Below are positions 56,062-62,915 of a stretch of 64,000 bases of DNA, piece by piece. Under the pieces are notes generated by a model. It saw only the letters and a list, made by a program, of their open reading frames with translations. It was not told where the DNA came from and ran no database searches. Source of the DNA: Clostridia bacterium (GTDB lineage Bacteria; Bacillota; Clostridia; TANB77; CAG-508); assembly GCA_017409455.1 (NCBI GenBank), contig JAFQSS010000021.1:45673-109672 (forward strand). Reading direction: 5' to 3'. The translations under genes were made by a program, and so were the position numbers. Numbering within the stretch: the first letter of the stretch is position 1; every line of letters begins with the position of its first letter.

Positions 56062-56145
56062 GCGGATGTGGCGGAACTGGCAGACGCGCTGGTCTTAGGA
56101 ACCAGTACCAACGGTGTGGAGGTTCAAGTCCTCTCATCCGCACCA
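56062..56145 (+). tRNA. tRNA-Leu (anticodon UAG), type II with a long variable arm and encoded CCA
   Basis: GCGGATG acceptor stem, anticodon stem-loop CTGGT-CTTAGGA-ACCAG, long variable arm, T-arm GGTTCAAGTCC and 3' CATCCGC-A-CCA. Confidence 0.9.
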
Positions 56146-56218
56146 AAAGATTAAATCGTCGCACCAGACGATAACCAAGAAATCAACTGTAAAAGGTTGA
56201 TTTTTTTGTTACCTTTTA

Positions 56219-56524
56219 TTGAAAAAGAAGGGATGGTGTGATATGATAAGTATCGTAAAGAAGAAAAACAAGATAAGCAGAGATTTACTCTCTAAGATTG
56301 AATGGGCTTGCCGTTTGAATTCTATAAAATTTGAACACCAAATGATATTAGAAGGTTGTTTGAGAGTTATAGAACACACAAACTTGGCGTATGTAGAGCC
56401 ACATAGAGTAATTATTAAGAATAATTTATATTTATTCTTTAATGAACATGATTACTTTTATGTGGGAGATTTAAGGACTAAATATCCTTTATCTAAACTA
56501 CAAGAATACATAGCAAGGCATTAA
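56219..56524 (+). CDS. Hypothetical protein (first gene of the island)
   Basis: 101-aa ORF with a TTG start after AAAGG. Confidence 0.4.
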   Translation: MKKKGWCDMISIVKKKNKISRDLLSKIEWACRLNSIKFEHQMILEGCLRVIEHTNLAYVEPHRVIIKNNLYLFFNEHDYFYVGDLRTKYPLSKLQEYIARH

Positions 56525-56596
56525 TTTTAGAGTTTTTAGAATTGCTTTTAATATAGAATATAAAACTTTAAAAAGTGCCAATAGTTATGTGATTAG

Positions 56597-58460
<1,864 letters not shown>

Positions 58461-58606
58461 AAAATAATAGGAAAAATTTATGCTTAAAATGATTTTCATA
58501 CTCCTACTGGAATCCTAACAAGCACTGAATTTTTCCTCCCTAGTCAAAATTCGAATTATGGGACTTAGTCCCAAACCCTATATAAAAAATGAAAGGAAGA
58601 TGAACT

Positions 58607-58939
58607 ATGATATTAAAAAATAATAGTGAAAAAGTAAAAATTTTAGTAAGATATTTTGAAACTTTAAGTATAGAAAATCAATTAAAATTATTTATAATTG
58701 TTTTAGAAAGTGACATGATAAAATTAAAAATTGACAAAGAAAATTTGATTGAACTTTTAAAAAATTTCTTATGTATTTTTGATAAGAACTATAACAAAAA
58801 TAGAATGGTAACTTTAGAATTTAATATGGATGTTTTTATATTATCCAAAGTTATGGAGATGAATGAAACAGAAAAAGAAAGTTTTGTTTTTGAATTATTT
58901 TATAATATTTATTGTATCATTTTACAAAAAAATAAATAA
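58607..58939 (+). CDS. Hypothetical protein
   Basis: 110-aa ORF with an AAAGGAAG RBS. Confidence 0.45.
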   Translation: MILKNNSEKVKILVRYFETLSIENQLKLFIIVLESDMIKLKIDKENLIELLKNFLCIFDKNYNKNRMVTLEFNMDVFILSKVMEMNETEKESFVFELFYNIYCIILQKNK

Positions 58940-59046
58940 AAAATATATAAATAATAGAAAATAAAAAATATATAAATAATAGAAAATACTTGACAATAAC
59001 AAACAAATGTTTTAAACTATATGTAGTTATAAAAGGATGTGAAATT

Positions 59047-59952
59047 ATGGAAAATGAAATAAATAGTTTGGTAGTTCAAGATAACATATCAAATGAAGAA
59101 ATAAAGAATTTAATATATACTATAAGAGGAAAACAAGTAATGTTAGATAGTGATGTTGCAATGTTATATCATTACACAACTAAAAATATAAATAAAGCAG
59201 TAAAGAGAAATATAGATAGATTTCCTGAAGATTTTTGTTTTCAATTAACTGAAAGCGAATTTCAAGATTTAAGGTTCCAATTTGGAACCTTAAATAGAAA
59301 AGTTAATAATGGAGATGTAACAAGAAAATATCTACCATATGTGTTTACTGAGCAAGGAATATCAATGTTGTCTGGAGTTTTGAAAAATGAAATTGCTGTA
59401 AAAGTTAGTATTAGTATCATAAGAGCCTTTGTAGAAATGAGAAAGTTTATATCTTCAAATGGACAATTATTTGAAAGATTAACTAATGTAGAATATAAAT
59501 TATTAGAACACGATAAGAAATTCGATAAAGTATTTGACCAGTTACAAAATGAAGAAAATATTAAACAAAAAATATTCTTTGAAGGTCAAATATATGATGC
59601 ATACAGTTTAATAATTGATATTATAAAAAAAACAACTAAAAAGATTTTAATAATAGATAATTATATAGATGATAGTGTTTTAAAAATGCTTACTAAAAAG
59701 AACAAGAATGTAGAGGTTGTAATATTAACTTCTGATAAAAGCAATATACAAAAACTTGATATTCAAAAATTTAATAAAGAATATCCTCTCTTAAAAGTTG
59801 CTAAAACAAATAAATTTCATGATAGATTTATAGTAATAGATAATAAAGAAATGTATCATCTAGGTGCTTCCATTAAAGATTTAGGAAAAAAGTGTTTTGG
59901 TATTAACAAAATTGAAGATATAGAAATTATAAACAAGATTATAAATTTATAA
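59047..59952 (+). CDS. ORF6N/ORF6C domain protein (phage antirepressor-like)
   Basis: N-terminal ...IYTIRGKQVMLDSDVAMLYHYTTKNINKAVKRNIDRFPEDFCFQLT... ORF6N signature. Start at 59047. Confidence 0.7.
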   Translation: MENEINSLVVQDNISNEEIKNLIYTIRGKQVMLDSDVAMLYHYTTKNINKAVKRNIDRFPEDFCFQLTESEFQDLRFQFGTLNRKVNNGDVTRKYLPYVFTEQGISMLSGVLKNEIAVKVSISIIRAFVEMRKFISSNGQLFERLTNVEYKLLEHDKKFDKVFDQLQNEENIKQKIFFEGQIYDAYSLIIDIIKKTTKKILIIDNYIDDSVLKMLTKKNKNVEVVILTSDKSNIQKLDIQKFNKEYPLLKVAKTNKFHDRFIVIDNKEMYHLGASIKDLGKKCFGINKIEDIEIINKIINL

Positions 59953-60046
59953 AATTAAACCAAATTGAAATATTGCGAAAAATAAGAAAAAATGCTATAA
60001 TAGACATAATTACTTGCAAAAGTAAAATTTAATGGAGGTGTTTATT

Positions 60047-60400
60047 GTGAGCGAACAATGGAAAGTTTGTGCAGATTTTTGTCACGAGAACCGGAATTGT
60101 CACTATGCAAAAATTGTAGAAGAAAATGGAGAATATCCAGTTATTACTTTCCAAGCGAAAGAAAAAAATGGAAGTCCAGATTTAACAACAATGCATAATG
60201 TCAAGACAAGAGTTGATACAACATGTTTGTGTGTTTATTGCACACATCCAAGCTATCCAGAAGAGAAATTTATTGGAAGTGTTGAACCTTATTTTCCGTG
60301 CCCTGTGCCAAGCGATTGTCCTTTGCAGAAACAATGCGAATCTGCTACAGACAAAAAGCCGACTCTTTTAGAAAGAGTAAAAAGTTTTTTTATTAAGTAG
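60047..60400 (+). CDS. Cys-rich small hypothetical protein (GC-rich)
   Basis: ORF 60032..60400. A GTG at 60047 follows GGAGGTG. 12 Cys in about 117 aa (CADFCHENRNC..., CLCVYC, PCPVPSDCPLQKQC). Followed by the terminator GCGATGTGAA...TTCACATCGC plus a T run at about 60408-60455. Confidence 0.5.
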   Translation: MSEQWKVCADFCHENRNCHYAKIVEENGEYPVITFQAKEKNGSPDLTTMHNVKTRVDTTCLCVYCTHPSYPEEKFIGSVEPYFPCPVPSDCPLQKQCESATDKKPTLLERVKSFFIK

Positions 60401-60842
60401 CAAAACACCAGCGATGTGAATAAATTCTGAATTGAATTGTTCACATCGCATTTTTTTATAAATTAAGTATCTTTTTAGTATACATTTTATAAAACTTGTG
60501 CTAAAATATATTTACAGTTGATGAACGGAAATTTTTTTTGTGCTAAATGTGGGAGGATATGCAGAAAAAATGTGCTATTTTTTCGCAAATAAGTACCGCT
60601 AACGCACCAATAACGAATCTGTTCGAACTACAGATACAAAAATCAATCAGTAACCTGGTTGATTTTTTTGTTTGTGAAAATTTCATACTAAAAGAAATGA
60701 TTAATAGAATTTTAAAAACGGCAAATGCGCAGTTATCAAAGGCTTAGAACTAGTATAGACATTGACAAATCACCTCAATTTTGTTATAATAAAAAAATCA
60801 TAGCCAAGCCTGTGAAATAAATATGTAAAAGAGGAAAAAAAT

Positions 60843-61922
60843 ATGCGGAAAAGAAATTGCTGGCTACAAATTGTGGCCCTCTTACTGTGTGGAATATTGC
60901 TAACAGCATGTCACTCTACACCAACACCCCAATATAGTAAACCCGAAGAAAACAATTATGGGAATCAAGCTGTATATGAATGTAAGCTAGAGTTCTCATC
61001 AAGAACGGTAATGTCAAACGCAACCGCAGGTAACACTTATTATTGCACAGCAGTAGATAGTCTTACAAACGTCCAATACATAGTGACGGGTTCTTCACAA
61101 ATTGATGGTGGAATGTCTATAACACCACGTATTGACTCTGATGGAAATCCTTTAATTGGAGAGCAAGAATGTGAGCTGAAATTCTCACAAAAAACAGTAA
61201 TATCAAAGGCGACTGTAGGCAGCACTTATTATTGTACAGCAGTAGACACTCTTACAAATGTCCAATACTTAGTGATTACATCTTCGCAAATTGATGGCGG
61301 AATATCTATAACACCACGTGTTAATTCTGATGGAAGTCCTTTAATTGGAGAGCAAGAATGTAAGCTGAAATTCTCACAAAGAACAGTAATGTCAAAAGCT
61401 ACTGTAGGCAGCACTTATTATTGCACAGCAGTAGATAGTCTTACTGATGTCCAGTATATAATGATGAGCTCTTCTCAAATTAGTGGAGGAATGTCTATAA
61501 CACCACGTATCGCTTCTGATGGAAAGCCTTTGACTGAAGAACAAGAATGTGAATTGGAATTCTCGCCCAAAACGGTAATGGCAAAGGCGAGAGTTGGTAG
61601 CACCTATTATTGTATAGCCGTAGACACTTTTACCAATGTCCAATACTTAGTGATGACATCTTCACAAATTGATAGTGGTATGTCTATAACACCACGTATG
61701 GACTCTGAAGGAAATCATTTGATTGGAGAACAAGAATGTGAGTTGGAATTCTCACAAAAAACGGTAATAGCAAAGGCAAGAGTGGGTGGTACTTATTATT
61801 GTACAGCAGTAGATGCTTTTACCAATGTCCAATACTTAGTGATGACATCTTCACAAATTGATGGTGGAATGTCTATAATATTACTTATTGATTCTAGTGG
61901 GAGTCATTTATTAGCAAACTAA
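60843..61922 (+). CDS. Lipoprotein with five tandem 62-aa Cys-containing repeats
   Basis: Signal peptide with lipobox LLTAC, then 5 copies of ECxLxFSxxTVxxKAxVGxTYYCTAVDxLTNVQYxVxxSSQIDGGMSITPRxxSDGxPLIGEQ. Confidence 0.8.
   Translation: MRKRNCWLQIVALLLCGILLTACHSTPTPQYSKPEENNYGNQAVYECKLEFSSRTVMSNATAGNTYYCTAVDSLTNVQYIVTGSSQIDGGMSITPRIDSDGNPLIGEQECELKFSQKTVISKATVGSTYYCTAVDTLTNVQYLVITSSQIDGGISITPRVNSDGSPLIGEQECKLKFSQRTVMSKATVGSTYYCTAVDSLTDVQYIMMSSSQISGGMSITPRIASDGKPLTEEQECELEFSPKTVMAKARVGSTYYCIAVDTFTNVQYLVMTSSQIDSGMSITPRMDSEGNHLIGEQECELEFSQKTVIAKARVGGTYYCTAVDAFTNVQYLVMTSSQIDGGMSIILLIDSSGSHLLAN
60975..61920 (+). repeat. About 186-bp tandem DNA repeat x5 inside the lipoprotein gene
   Basis: The period is visible as repeated GAATG(T/C)GAG(C/T)TG(A/G)AATTCTC(A/G)CAAA...ACTTATTATTG(T/C)ACAGCAGTAGA... 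The same repeat generates the spurious antisense ORFs 61040..61225 and 61229..61414. Confidence 0.8.
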
Positions 61923-62022
61923 AATTTCATAAAAAAAGAGGCCATTTTTTAATCAAACAAAACATGGTCTCTTTTTCATTTAATATAATATCTACCCCAA
62001 ACAGGATATTCAAAAATTTTAT

Positions 62023-62051
62023 TTGACATTTCCTAATTATCTGTGTATAAT
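62023..62051 (+). promoter_or_regulatory. Consensus sigma-A promoter driving a short terminator-ended transcript (candidate antitoxin sRNA)
   Basis: TTGACA 62023-28, a 17-nt spacer and TATAAT 62046-51. Confidence 0.6.
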
Positions 62052-62057
62052 TAATAT

Positions 62058-62147
62058 AGGAAATGACAATTCCACAAACGTGGTTTTGCCAGATAAATTG
62101 AGAAAACTCACATCTACCTTGCAATGTACAGATGTGAGCTTTTTTTA
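62058..62147 (+). ncRNA. Candidate roughly 90-nt sRNA (type I antitoxin-like), ending in a bidirectional terminator
   Basis: Predicted TSS about 62058. Terminator stem CTCACATCT (62107-15) / AGATGTGAG (62130-38) followed by TTTTTTT (62140-46). The 3' 40 nt overlap the stop codon and 3' end of the convergent peptide gene. Confidence 0.45.
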
Positions 62148-62258
62148 TTTATGTAGTTGCTTATCAACCCAGTTCTTATACAGAACTGCTGTCAAGGCAA
62201 CGTTTAATGTTAAAGATAACATAAAGGATATTATAAAAAATAGTATCACTTTAACCAT
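62145..62258 (-). CDS. Small hydrophobic peptide (37 aa, or 39 aa from ATG 62264), type I toxin-like
   Basis: AGAGAGGTGG RBS, then M(FM)VKVILFFIISFMLSLTLNVALTAVLYKNWVDKQLHK, one TM helix plus a basic/polar tail. Own promoter TTGATT-17-TGcTATACT (about 62368-62340, minus strand) and a roughly 75-nt 5' UTR. Confidence 0.45.
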   Translation of the reverse strand: MVKVILFFIISFMLSLTLNVALTAVLYKNWVDKQLHK

Positions 62259-62684
62259 AAACATCACCACCTCTCTTACGATATTTCGTATAATTGGTGG
62301 CAAAACCACATCTGCTTATCATCATTTCCTATGTCAGCTAGTATAGCATACAATTTACAACAAATCAAGATAAAAGAAACAAATTTTCGTAAAGTTTTTT
62401 TAAAAAAATTTCTTGATTTTTATTAAAATATTTGTTAATCTATATATAAATTGATTGATATTTGTATCAATCGTTATGAGAGCCAAAAAAGTTGTAGATA
62501 ACTACTTCGATGGCAACAGATAAAGGCTAATAAAGTTAGTCTTTTTTTGTTATGTTGTGAAACGAGTTGAAAAATAAAGAAATTTGTGGTATCATAATAA
62601 AGTATCTAAAATTTGATATAATTTCAAACTAAAACTTTTAAATAGGAAGACAATAATCTCATCAACTAAAAGGAGGTAAAATTT

Positions 62685-62915
62685 GTGCGTGCAGGTGCAA
62701 GTGGATTGGCCCTTAAAGTAAACCCTCATAATTTAAGAGTAGGTATAATAAAAGACTGGGACTCTCACTGGAATTTTGATTCTCATATACCAATAACTTT
62801 TCCAGAGTCTGAAAAATCTAGTACACCATGTGTAGTTGGAAAAGTTAAAGATTGGAATACTCGAGGCGATAATGGAATGAAGAACGTGCCTCGAAAGAAG
62901 CCTCATCATAAGTAA
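62685..62915 (+). CDS. GC-rich small hypothetical protein
   Basis: GTG start after AAAGGAGGTAAAATTT. 76 aa at about 42% GC. Confidence 0.45.
   Translation: MRAGASGLALKVNPHNLRVGIIKDWDSHWNFDSHIPITFPESEKSSTPCVVGKVKDWNTRGDNGMKNVPRKKPHHK

Follow-up and report, generated by a model that had tools for sequence, protein, structure and literature searches.

A likely type I toxin-antitoxin module of a previously undescribed family from uncultured gut Bacillota

Introduction

Type I toxin-antitoxin systems easily escape detection, as both of their genes are tiny and evolve fast. To our knowledge, the families described so far come almost entirely from cultured model organisms. Type I modules are used as counter-selection tools in anaerobes that are hard to manipulate. 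Here we describe a locus in a stretch of 64,000 nucleotides (nt) from an uncultured gut Clostridia bacterium (contig JAFQSS010000021.1, positions 45,673 to 109,672 of the forward strand; hereafter called the window, in whose own numbering positions are given). At this locus, a small RNA (sRNA) gene of the plus strand and a gene for a hydrophobic peptide of the minus strand converge on a common terminator, and we consider it likely from their sequences that the pair is a type I toxin-antitoxin module and represents a family not described before. The generic features of such systems are found here: the peptide is hydrophobic and shorter than 60 residues, the antisense RNA appears to have a promoter and a terminator of its own, and the toxin mRNA is predicted to adopt a self-blocking fold. 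An earlier note on the window had proposed a candidate type I module at this place, and the conservation of the unit in hundreds of loci, its presence in several copies per genome, its repeated mobility and its covarying helices all argue for that proposal.

The closest described systems include par (Fst/RNA I-RNA II) of Enterococcus faecalis pAD1 and its chromosomal relatives, in which convergent promoters and a bidirectional intrinsic terminator likewise give complementary stem-loops. According to T1TAdb, the overlap between the two RNAs excludes the open reading frame (ORF) of the toxin in Fst/RNAII and in SprA1/SprA1as, whereas the ORF is overlapped in the TxpA/RatA and Bsr systems (PMC8594479). 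Because the overlap at our locus excludes the toxin ORF as well, its architecture matches those of Fst/RNAII and SprA1/SprA1as and not those of txpA/RatA or bsrG/SR4, to which the earlier note had likened it. In par, a 5' stem-loop (5'-SL) of the toxin mRNA sequesters the Shine-Dalgarno (SD) sequence (PMC7472228). The likeness extends to such a predicted SD-sequestering stem-loop, to the overlap without ORF, to a frequent location on mobile elements and to a peptide of ~33-37 residues with a single transmembrane (TM) segment, a Trp residue at the membrane boundary and a charged tail (PMC7472228). The module differs from par in that it lacks the DRa/DRb direct repeats, the 5' ends of its RNAs being homologous in inverted orientation instead of complementary, in that the first nucleotides of the toxin mRNA, judging from leader-only folds, are probably free and not engaged in an upstream helix, and in that its sRNA is longer and has a 5' hairpin of its own. 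As the peptide also lacks the PXXXG motif of Fst and gives no Pfam Fst hit, both defining traits of par, DRa/DRb complementarity and a PXXXG peptide, are absent.

In SprA1/SprA1as (PepA1) of Staphylococcus aureus, the 3' overlap likewise excludes the ORF and the antisense RNA also has a separate 5' domain. That domain acts in trans on the ribosome-binding site (RBS) (PMC8594479), whereas no significant complementarity to the RBS was found for the 5' domain of our sRNA, and the peptides are unrelated. With txpA/RatA and bsrG/SR4 of Bacillus subtilis the module has in common convergent RNAs that pair via their 3' ends, a setting in prophage-like or island DNA and duplex-triggered mRNA decay, which is also the mechanism that we propose below. 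However, the antisense RNAs of those systems overlap the ORF (PMC8594479), whereas the overlap at our locus ends at the stop codon; no relevant Rfam match (E <= 10) was obtained for the sRNA and no Pfam match for the peptide. Finally, type I modules on prophages and other mobile elements of Clostridioides difficile (CD0977.1-RCd11 and others) are reported to contribute to the maintenance of these elements (PMC7699646). They likewise combine small hydrophobic toxins with antisense antitoxins on integrated elements of gut Bacillota; they bear no sequence relationship to our module. Altogether, the sequences indicate a new family of putative toxin and antitoxin with an unusual, apparently selectively maintained 5' identity of its two RNAs.

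Architecture of the module

The module comprises the following features.
62023-62051, plus strand: sRNA (antitoxin) promoter, TTGACA-17-TATAAT, identical to the consensus at 12 of 12 positions
62056-62146, plus strand: antisense sRNA of ~90 nt, its start (+/-2 nt) being placed from the -10 box and the conserved tag
62056-62066, plus strand: sRNA copy of the shared 5' tag ATAGGAAATGA, predicted to be single-stranded (unpaired in 8 of 8 lineage folds)
62064-62091, plus strand: predicted 5' hairpin of the sRNA, UG.CAA..CCAC/GUGG..UUG.CA, whose 3' arm (62075-62091) is the shared box
62095-62146, both strands: region presumably transcribed from both strands, with a predicted perfect sRNA-mRNA duplex that includes the toxin stop codon (-85.8 kcal/mol)
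62107-62138, both strands: bidirectional intrinsic terminator hairpin common to both RNAs, with compensatory changes
62145-62258, minus strand: toxin ORF of 37 codons (MVKVILFFIISFMLSLTLNVALTAVLYKNWVDKQLHK) plus stop, with homologues and one TM segment
62265-62277, minus strand: SD region GAGAGGUGGUG, whose GGUGG core (62271-62267) pairs with the box
62277-62290, minus strand: inner leader hairpin UACGA-AAUA-UCGUA, whose pairing is kept despite sequence turnover
62296-62314, minus strand: shared box in the toxin leader (CAGAUGUGGUUUUGCCACC), the cis anti-SD/anti-start arm of the consensus fold
62322-62332, minus strand: toxin copy of the shared 5' tag ATAGGAAATGA, located by the inverted match, and putative start of the toxin mRNA
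62340-62368, minus strand: toxin promoter TTGATT-17-TGcTATACT, from the promoter scan, with other forms in the family

Both promoters had been pointed out in the earlier note and were recovered in our analyses, the toxin promoter at 62368-62340. The sRNA promoter is the best and sole site with 12 of 12 consensus positions in a 3-kb scan.

Distribution and conservation

We scanned species-representative genomes, with one genome per species, and compared three sets of sequences, namely the 80 best loci, 72 non-redundant loci aligned in register and eight divergent lineages. A search for the peptide in related genomes, as the earlier note had advised, did uncover a family: 348 module loci were found in the species representatives, all of them in metagenome-assembled genomes (MAGs) of uncultured gut Bacillota, labelled Clostridia, Clostridium sp., Bacilli, 'Tenericutes' or Anaeroplasma and originating from humans, rabbits, ruminants and chickens. 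At least nine assemblies are represented twice in the set of the 80 best loci. We also identified tandem modules (L088:2290-2413, and also L089), in which a second toxin promoter and leader lie ~110 nt beyond the sRNA promoter of the first module. The window matches a gut metagenome scaffold in which gene callers left the toxin ORF uncalled.

The conserved unit is about 320 bp long (62015-62335) and is present in 75-80 of the 80 loci. In the 72-locus alignment, conservation is near-complete from the toxin -35 box to the sRNA -35 box and collapses just beyond the sRNA promoter, in agreement with blastn coverage of the 80 loci; sequences past the sRNA -35 box are unrelated between loci. Conservation in the 80 loci runs about 150 bp beyond the extent first given for the module (62015-62370), to about 62,517. 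The TTGAC[A/T]-17/18-TATAAT promoter of the sRNA occurs in 71 of the 72 non-redundant loci, with a spacer whose sequence drifts freely. The toxin promoter is weaker and more variable across the family, the TTGnTT...TGnTATACT form being found in 44/72 loci and other promoter types in the remainder.

Directly upstream of the toxin -35 box, a conserved AACAAAT(A/T)TT(C/T)G(C/T)AAA element (62375-62392 in the window) is a perfect palindrome in many loci (CAAATATTTG or CAAAATTTTG) and could act on the toxin promoter as an operator or an UP-like element.

Genes found near the module in various loci code for Mob_Pre relaxases, serine recombinases and VirB4/TraG-type ATPases, and some copies are embedded in conjugative elements. 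No neighbouring gene recurs as a conserved partner of the module across loci.

The toxin peptide

The minus-strand open frame 62145-62309 holds M(FM)VKVILFFIISFMLSLTLNVALTAVLYKNWVDKQLHK and ends with a stop codon (62147-62145) inside the U-tract of the sRNA. Upstream of the conserved toxin start at 62258, it contains another in-frame AUG at 62264. The downstream, second AUG is the sole one in remote relatives, and we therefore consider that the conserved product has 37 residues. Thus, the frame, the peptide and the stop codon proposed earlier stand, and the stated length of 37-39 residues is refined to 37. The peptide has a grand average of hydropathy (GRAVY) of 1.05, a single TM segment (Kyte-Doolittle score of 2.3, residues 4-27) and a polar tail with a charge of +2. 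Pro and Gly residues are absent from it and from the family consensus; Pro occurs at codon 13 in one of the 72 loci and Gly in a few remote relatives, none of which harbours a PXXXG motif.

Homologues of the peptide number 47 among 5.8 billion clustered proteins, and every one of them is metagenomic, while an exhaustive profile search of 1.84 billion representatives yielded only 25 clusters. Judging from these sequences, the family is real but narrow. It appears to be under purifying selection: the N-terminal half is variable yet always hydrophobic, LSLTLNVAL..VLYKNWVDKQLHK is near-invariant, the polar tail YKNWVDKQLHK is strongly conserved, and remote members retain S-x3-N-V-A-L-x3-[LI]-Y-x2-W-[VA]-[ND]-K-[QE]. 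Conservation in the peptide alignment starts at M(FM)VKV, and the upstream 'extensions' proposed by gene callers are in differing reading frames, which argues that the toxin leader is non-coding. Synonymous sites of the ORF are mostly frozen, with codons 17-23 and 30-39 nearly invariant in nucleotides. As the promoter spacers drift, this indicates that the mRNA is constrained as an RNA in addition to its coding function.

A sub-threshold RdrD match to an artificial 54-residue ORF was spurious, and a literature search for the tail motif found no paper. We also considered that the peptide might be a leaderless bacteriocin. This was rejected, since it is a plain TM helix, transport or immunity genes do not recur nearby and its translation appears heavily repressed.

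Shared terminator and 3' overlap

The sRNA consists, in order, of a free 5' tag, a 5' hairpin, an A/U-rich linker, the terminator and a U7 tract. The 91-nt molecule has a predicted folding energy of -22.6 kcal/mol (z = -3.4), matched by none of 200 shuffled sequences, and the two-hairpin layout is common to 62 aligned sequences and eight divergent lineages. The core stem of the 5' hairpin is compensated, with CCGU/ACGG in L082 and CCGCA/UGCGG in L090. The terminator starts about 55 nt past the presumed sRNA start with a 9-bp stem, CTCACATCT (62107-62115) and AGATGTGAG (62130-62138), which encloses a 14-nt loop and is followed by C and T7 (62140-62146). It therefore escaped a simple terminator scanner, whose limit is an 8-nt loop, but stem, loop and T7 confirm the hairpin that had been described as closing a plus-strand RNA of ~90 nt. 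The U7 tract at 62140-62146 serves the sRNA, and UUUUCU at 62106-62101 the toxin mRNA. Compensatory double changes affect 6/8 pairs among the 62 sequences, and three unrelated stems, CTCACATCT, TAAACCATT and ACGACACAT, all pair.

In locus L071 (3120-3330), an unrelated sequence starting with TGTGTACTGAACCCAAAAAGTTGGAC interrupts the terminator loop and parts the toxin gene from the sRNA; this insertion looks like an insertion-sequence end.

Since the terminator is bidirectional and common to both RNAs, the last ~50 nt of the sRNA are the exact complement of the 3' end of the toxin mRNA, stop codon included. The overlap, first estimated at roughly 40 nt, is about 45-52 nt long and ends at the toxin stop codon. 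The 3'-3' duplex that had been suggested for prediction reaches the -85.8 kcal/mol given above and represents the only extended complementarity above chance between the two RNAs. Between their 5' regions, only short AU-rich helices were found, no better than those of shuffled sequences. A par-type 5' interaction was rejected, because direct repeats, contiguous helices, duplex energies and cofolds of cognate versus non-cognate pairs were all at chance level.

Mini-ORFs start from the AUG of the shared tag (AGGAAAUGA), one of 12 codons in the sRNA (62063-62101, plus strand) and one of 24 codons in the toxin leader (62251-62325, minus strand), the latter ending 4 nt past the second AUG of the toxin gene. 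Their coding potential was assessed and both are treated as non-coding, because their frame and length differ from locus to locus and L090 lacks the AUG, in line with the original view that the sRNA has no convincing ORF. A hok/mok-like coupling through these mini-ORFs is formally conceivable.

Toxin leader and sequestration of the start region

A consensus fold of 51 leaders predicts that UUGCCACC of the box pairs with GGUGGUGA, covering the SD core and the first base of the first AUG, and that AGC..AUG of the upstream box pairs with bases around the second AUG. Both helices enclose the small inner hairpin. The SD-box pairing is the minimum-energy fold in 7/8 divergent lineages, and the inner hairpin is replaced in remote loci by unrelated sequences that also pair, namely UCUCAA/UUGAGA, CACAG/CUGUG, UUCGAUAU/AUAUCGAA and UACUAA/UUAGUA. 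The predicted leader helix that sequesters the SD sequence and the start codons therefore persists through sequence turnover in divergent lineages. The first 8-11 nt of the toxin mRNA are unpaired in leader-only folds.

When the full-length toxin mRNA is folded, nt 18-36 pair with the 3' arm of the terminator, as in hok. This pairing (CAGAUGUGG with the terminator arm) was rejected as a conserved feature, because it does not covary: 14 loci with an alternative terminator retain CAGAUGUGG unchanged.

A few copies are without the normal leader. In L041 (2870-3120), and in the proteins P0012 and P0046, the toxin ORF continues an upstream coding sequence in frame, and in L035 and L080 unrelated sequence takes the place of the tag and the box, which deprives the leader of its cis anti-SD arm. 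Such copies may be inactive or under a different regulation.

Inverted 5' homology of the two RNAs

The locus had been described as an imperfect inverted duplication. The 5' homology is indeed present, with 11 of 11 matches between 62056-62066 and 62322-62332 and 15 of 17 between 62075-62091 and 62298-62314, a combined pattern found in none of 100 shuffles of the window. The two copies are maintained in concert across lineages, and in this respect the idea of a decaying relic of duplication did not hold. An origin of the antitoxin from a copy of the toxin gene, as suggested in the earlier note, is conceivable. In L082, the sRNA hairpin has changed from CCAC/GUGG to CCGU/ACGG and the toxin box to ACGG in parallel, and ACGGUUUUGCCAC is present in both RNAs. 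Likewise, both RNAs of L086 and both of L088 contain GUGGUUUGCC, those of L087 GCCU, and those of L090 GUUACC together with a modified tag. Among the eight lineages, the similarity between each toxin leader and its own sRNA beats all but 6 of 40,320 re-pairings (p≈1.5e-4). Independently diverged paralogues of one ancient duplication would lack such cognate similarity, and the homology is therefore no decaying relic. General site-by-site concerted change of the two boxes was not seen within the close family, the signal being confined to divergent lineages; single variants in the close family are usually unshared between the copies, which makes frequent gene conversion unlikely.

The sequences thus indicate that the 5' tag and the box common to both RNAs are maintained by selection. 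According to the folds, the tag of 8-11 nt is unpaired in both RNAs, and the box is the anti-SD arm in the toxin mRNA and the 3' arm of a self-contained hairpin in the sRNA. Base-pairing models do not explain why the sRNA keeps its copy of the box.

Proposed mechanism and alternative explanations

We propose the following mechanism. The minus strand would give an mRNA of ~235 nt for the 37-residue single-pass membrane peptide, the putative toxin. Its leader would keep the peptide untranslated, the box (UUGCCACC, preceded by AGCAGAUG) pairing with the SD sequence and both start codons around the inner hairpin. The plus strand would give an RNA of ~90 nt from its near-consensus promoter, stronger than that of the toxin, ending at the shared terminator. 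The complementary stem-loops of the terminator would meet and zip into a long duplex, which may trigger double-strand-specific cleavage and decay of the toxin mRNA and/or lock its SD-sequestered state. If the element were lost or sRNA synthesis stopped, the longer-lived, compactly folded toxin mRNA would be translated and the membrane damaged, which would favour retention of the carrier element, here the right end of a tRNA-linked integrative island. Support for the gene pair, its promoters, the terminator and the SD-sequestering fold comes from sequence, conservation, covariation, copy number and mobile context, and from these we infer transcription, toxicity, duplex-triggered decay and a role in addiction. 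This simple 3'-duplex model is favoured because no significant pairing between the 5' regions was found and the 5'-3' pairing of the toxin mRNA does not covary.

Several observations weigh against a type I module acting in this way. The peptide matches no known toxin family in Pfam (even at E <= 10), NCBIfam or PADLOC, and the sRNA no antitoxin in Rfam at E <= 10, where it gives chance micro-RNA and snoRNA hits only. All the hosts are uncultured MAGs. Some divergent copies lie between housekeeping genes, so that an addiction role cannot be general; there is a single match among 2.9 million viral contigs (IMG/VR) and none in phage and plasmid records. In 10 of the 62 sRNA-strand terminators a C.A mismatch occurs, which corresponds to a G.U pair on the toxin strand. 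Lastly, the overlap does not cover the RBS and therefore does not by itself explain translational repression, and duplexes that the sRNA 5' domain could form with the toxin leader or around the translation start have energies no better than those of dinucleotide shuffles.

These last two points bear on another type I mechanism, in which the 3' overlap merely tethers the RNAs and the sRNA 5' domain sequesters the toxin RBS in trans or swaps strands with the leader helix. We keep it as the main rival because functional pairing lies outside the overlap in Fst/RNAII and SprA1/SprA1as, and it would indeed resemble RNAII of par and SprA1as, whose 5' domains act outside their overlaps. The sRNA 5' region is nearly invariant in the 62 sequences, and in every lineage the sRNA box keeps 5-7 nt of the cis anti-SD arm (UUGCCA, UUGCCAC, UUACC), the two box copies covarying within loci (ACGGUUUUGCCAC in L082, GCCU in L087, GUUACC in L090). 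We nevertheless regard this mechanism as unlikely. In addition to the duplex energies, cofolding of the 5' domain yields no more than -1 to -3 kcal/mol and does not favour cognate pairs (p = 0.25), the sRNA copy of the box is always devoid of the 3' CC/UC part that forms the strongest SD pairs and is locked in its own stable hairpin, and the complementarity of the sRNA hairpin loop to the start codon is not conserved. Going beyond antisense pairing, the antitoxin might act by mimicry, through its copy of the cis 5' tag and anti-SD box of the toxin mRNA, an idea that we put forward as speculative and regard as rather unlikely. The sRNA, tethered by the 3' duplex, could then replace the cis box at the RBS, or the two RNAs could be competitors for a factor that recognizes the tag and box, be it a ribonuclease, an RNA-binding protein or the 30S subunit. 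If true, type I antitoxins would have a mode of action not previously described.

It is also improbable, in our view, that the peptide is an ordinary small membrane protein, such as a transporter modulator or a stress peptide, with a cis-antisense RNA to adjust its amount. Its dissimilarity to all known toxins in the above databases and the core-genome contexts of several copies would agree with such a function, and the conserved tail YKNWVDKQLHK could be a specific protein-interaction motif. However, the module occurs in multiple and tandem copies and is tied to mobile elements, no conserved partner gene adjoins it, and repression of the ORF is layered, with sequestration of the SD sequence and both AUGs, a weak promoter and an antisense promoter that matches the consensus. 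Very improbable is an explanation of the inverted 5' repeats as DNA sites (operators at +1 to +35 of both convergent promoters, bound by a single regulator, or recombination sites of a segment that is invertible or mobile) or as sequences kept by short-patch gene conversion alone. The repeats are equally placed relative to each convergent promoter, they covary within loci with no RNA-RNA pairing to account for it, and the integrative element whose end the module occupies has many further palindromes. Nonetheless, the box appears to have roles at the RNA level, as the anti-SD arm of the leader and as an sRNA hairpin arm with compensatory changes; the segment between the repeats is inverted in none of about 85 loci, and such an inversion should be lethal, as the ORF would then be driven by the strong promoter and its anti-SD arm would be weakened. 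Many single-copy variants unshared by the two copies speak against frequent conversion.

As a well-delimited, widespread family limited to uncultured gut Bacillota and mostly missed by gene callers, the type I module proposed here provides a compact test case from nature for how translation at the 5' end of an mRNA is controlled by an antisense RNA whose pairing is confined to the 3' end, and for why an antitoxin retains a faithful copy of the regulatory 5' sequence of its own target. In addition, it provides a convenient means of recognizing a family of small tRNA-targeting islands.

Island context and neighbouring genes

The module of the window lies at the right end of an island of ~6.4 kb (56062-62517) that extends from a tRNA-Leu gene to a conserved right-end arm. 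The features of these borders are the following.
56062-56145, plus strand: tRNA-Leu(tag), left island border (ARAGORN)
62370-62517: conserved right-end arm of the island family, found in 43-61 of 80 loci
62414-62442, plus strand: outward promoter-like site TTGATT-17-TGtTAATCT, conserved, inside the arm
62450-62474: near-perfect palindrome ATTGATTGATAtttgTATCAATCgt, inside the arm
62491-62505: small hairpin, inside the arm
62512-62517: GGCAAC, a terminus resembling a tRNA 3' end, at the end of the arm
62522-62548, plus strand: locus-specific hairpin and T-run directly outside the arm, whose position is kept and whose sequence differs in each locus

In other loci, the arm ends with GGCACCA or CCGCTCCA, beyond which lies the native sequence downstream of a tRNA gene. 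In the window, the tRNA-Leu 3' end and the ~85 nt that follow it are nearly identical to the sequence beyond the conserved block in L075 (score 142), a tRNA gene lies 100-500 nt past the sRNA promoter in at least 13 other loci, and L066 has flanking direct repeats with a score of 63, reached by none of 1000 shuffles. From these tRNA-end termini, native flanks, repeats and nearby tRNA genes, the module appears to be right-end cargo of tRNA-targeting islands; within the family, one border does carry an intact tRNA gene, and the other a partial tRNA 3' end with a repeated flank. The right junction of the window island is degenerate, with an 11-nt repeat only (p about 0.009), and its large serine recombinase is split into a 165-residue Resolvase ORF and a 372-residue Recombinase ORF. 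Together with the tRNA-Leu gene, these features bear out the decayed mobile island described earlier. Its genes are all on the plus strand, whereas the flanking genes are on the minus strand, and the GC skew flips at 56 kb and 63 kb. The island also encodes an ORF6N protein and several ORFs without family. Some related islands are only ~1 kb long; a serine recombinase gene lies within 3 kb in six other loci, and there is none in minimal islands such as L011.

A motif similar to the arm palindrome, GATACAAAAATCAATCA, is found at the left ends of related islands, directly after the tRNA gene. The outward site and the palindrome could be binding sites for the recombinase or an accessory protein, or a promoter acting across the junction of an excised circle. 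Islands also occur in tandem: in L040 and L075, the left end of a second island of this family comes after the island-end arm. The hairpin at the position of 62522-62548 is followed by at least five T residues in 14/35 loci on this strand and in 2/35 on the other, and the most plausible reading is that it terminates the targeted gene. We had considered a third, divergent RNA ('RNA3', 62449-62548), which at first seemed backed by the conserved promoter-like site and downstream terminators. It was demoted because these 'terminators' are native flanks of the targeted tRNA genes and the terminus of the block is a tRNA 3'-end fragment; it has no complementarity to the sRNA or the toxin mRNA, and the G.U patterns of the small hairpins suit the opposite strand.

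Upstream of the module, the plus-strand gene at 60843-61922 codes for a predicted lipoprotein of 359 residues, with a signal peptide followed by a Cys residue and weak or faint Pfam hints. It comprises about five tandem repeats of ~63 residues with the motif ECELKFS..TV.SKATVGSTYYCTAVD.LTNVQY...SSQIDGGMSITPR, which cause recurring terminator-like and promoter-like false positives on the minus strand. After this gene, an 18-nt inverted repeat (61925-61976; 89% complementary), flanked by A- and T-runs (AAAAAGAGGCCATTTTTT / AAAACATGGTCTCTTTTT), is probably its bidirectional terminator; the repeat is also the source of chance Rfam 'Plastid-psbA' hits.

Beyond the island end, a 76-codon ORF (62685-62915, plus strand; KVNPHNLRVGIIKDWDSHWNFDSH) has no Pfam hit. 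Its residues 10-34 match the extreme N-terminus of uS3, with a best E-value of about 1e-3 against solved ribosome structures, and the remainder is unrelated to uS3. It looks like an orphan 5' rpsC fragment between the island end and recG, and it is preceded by a promoter-like TTGAAA-17-TATCAT sequence at 62567-62595 and a strong RBS.

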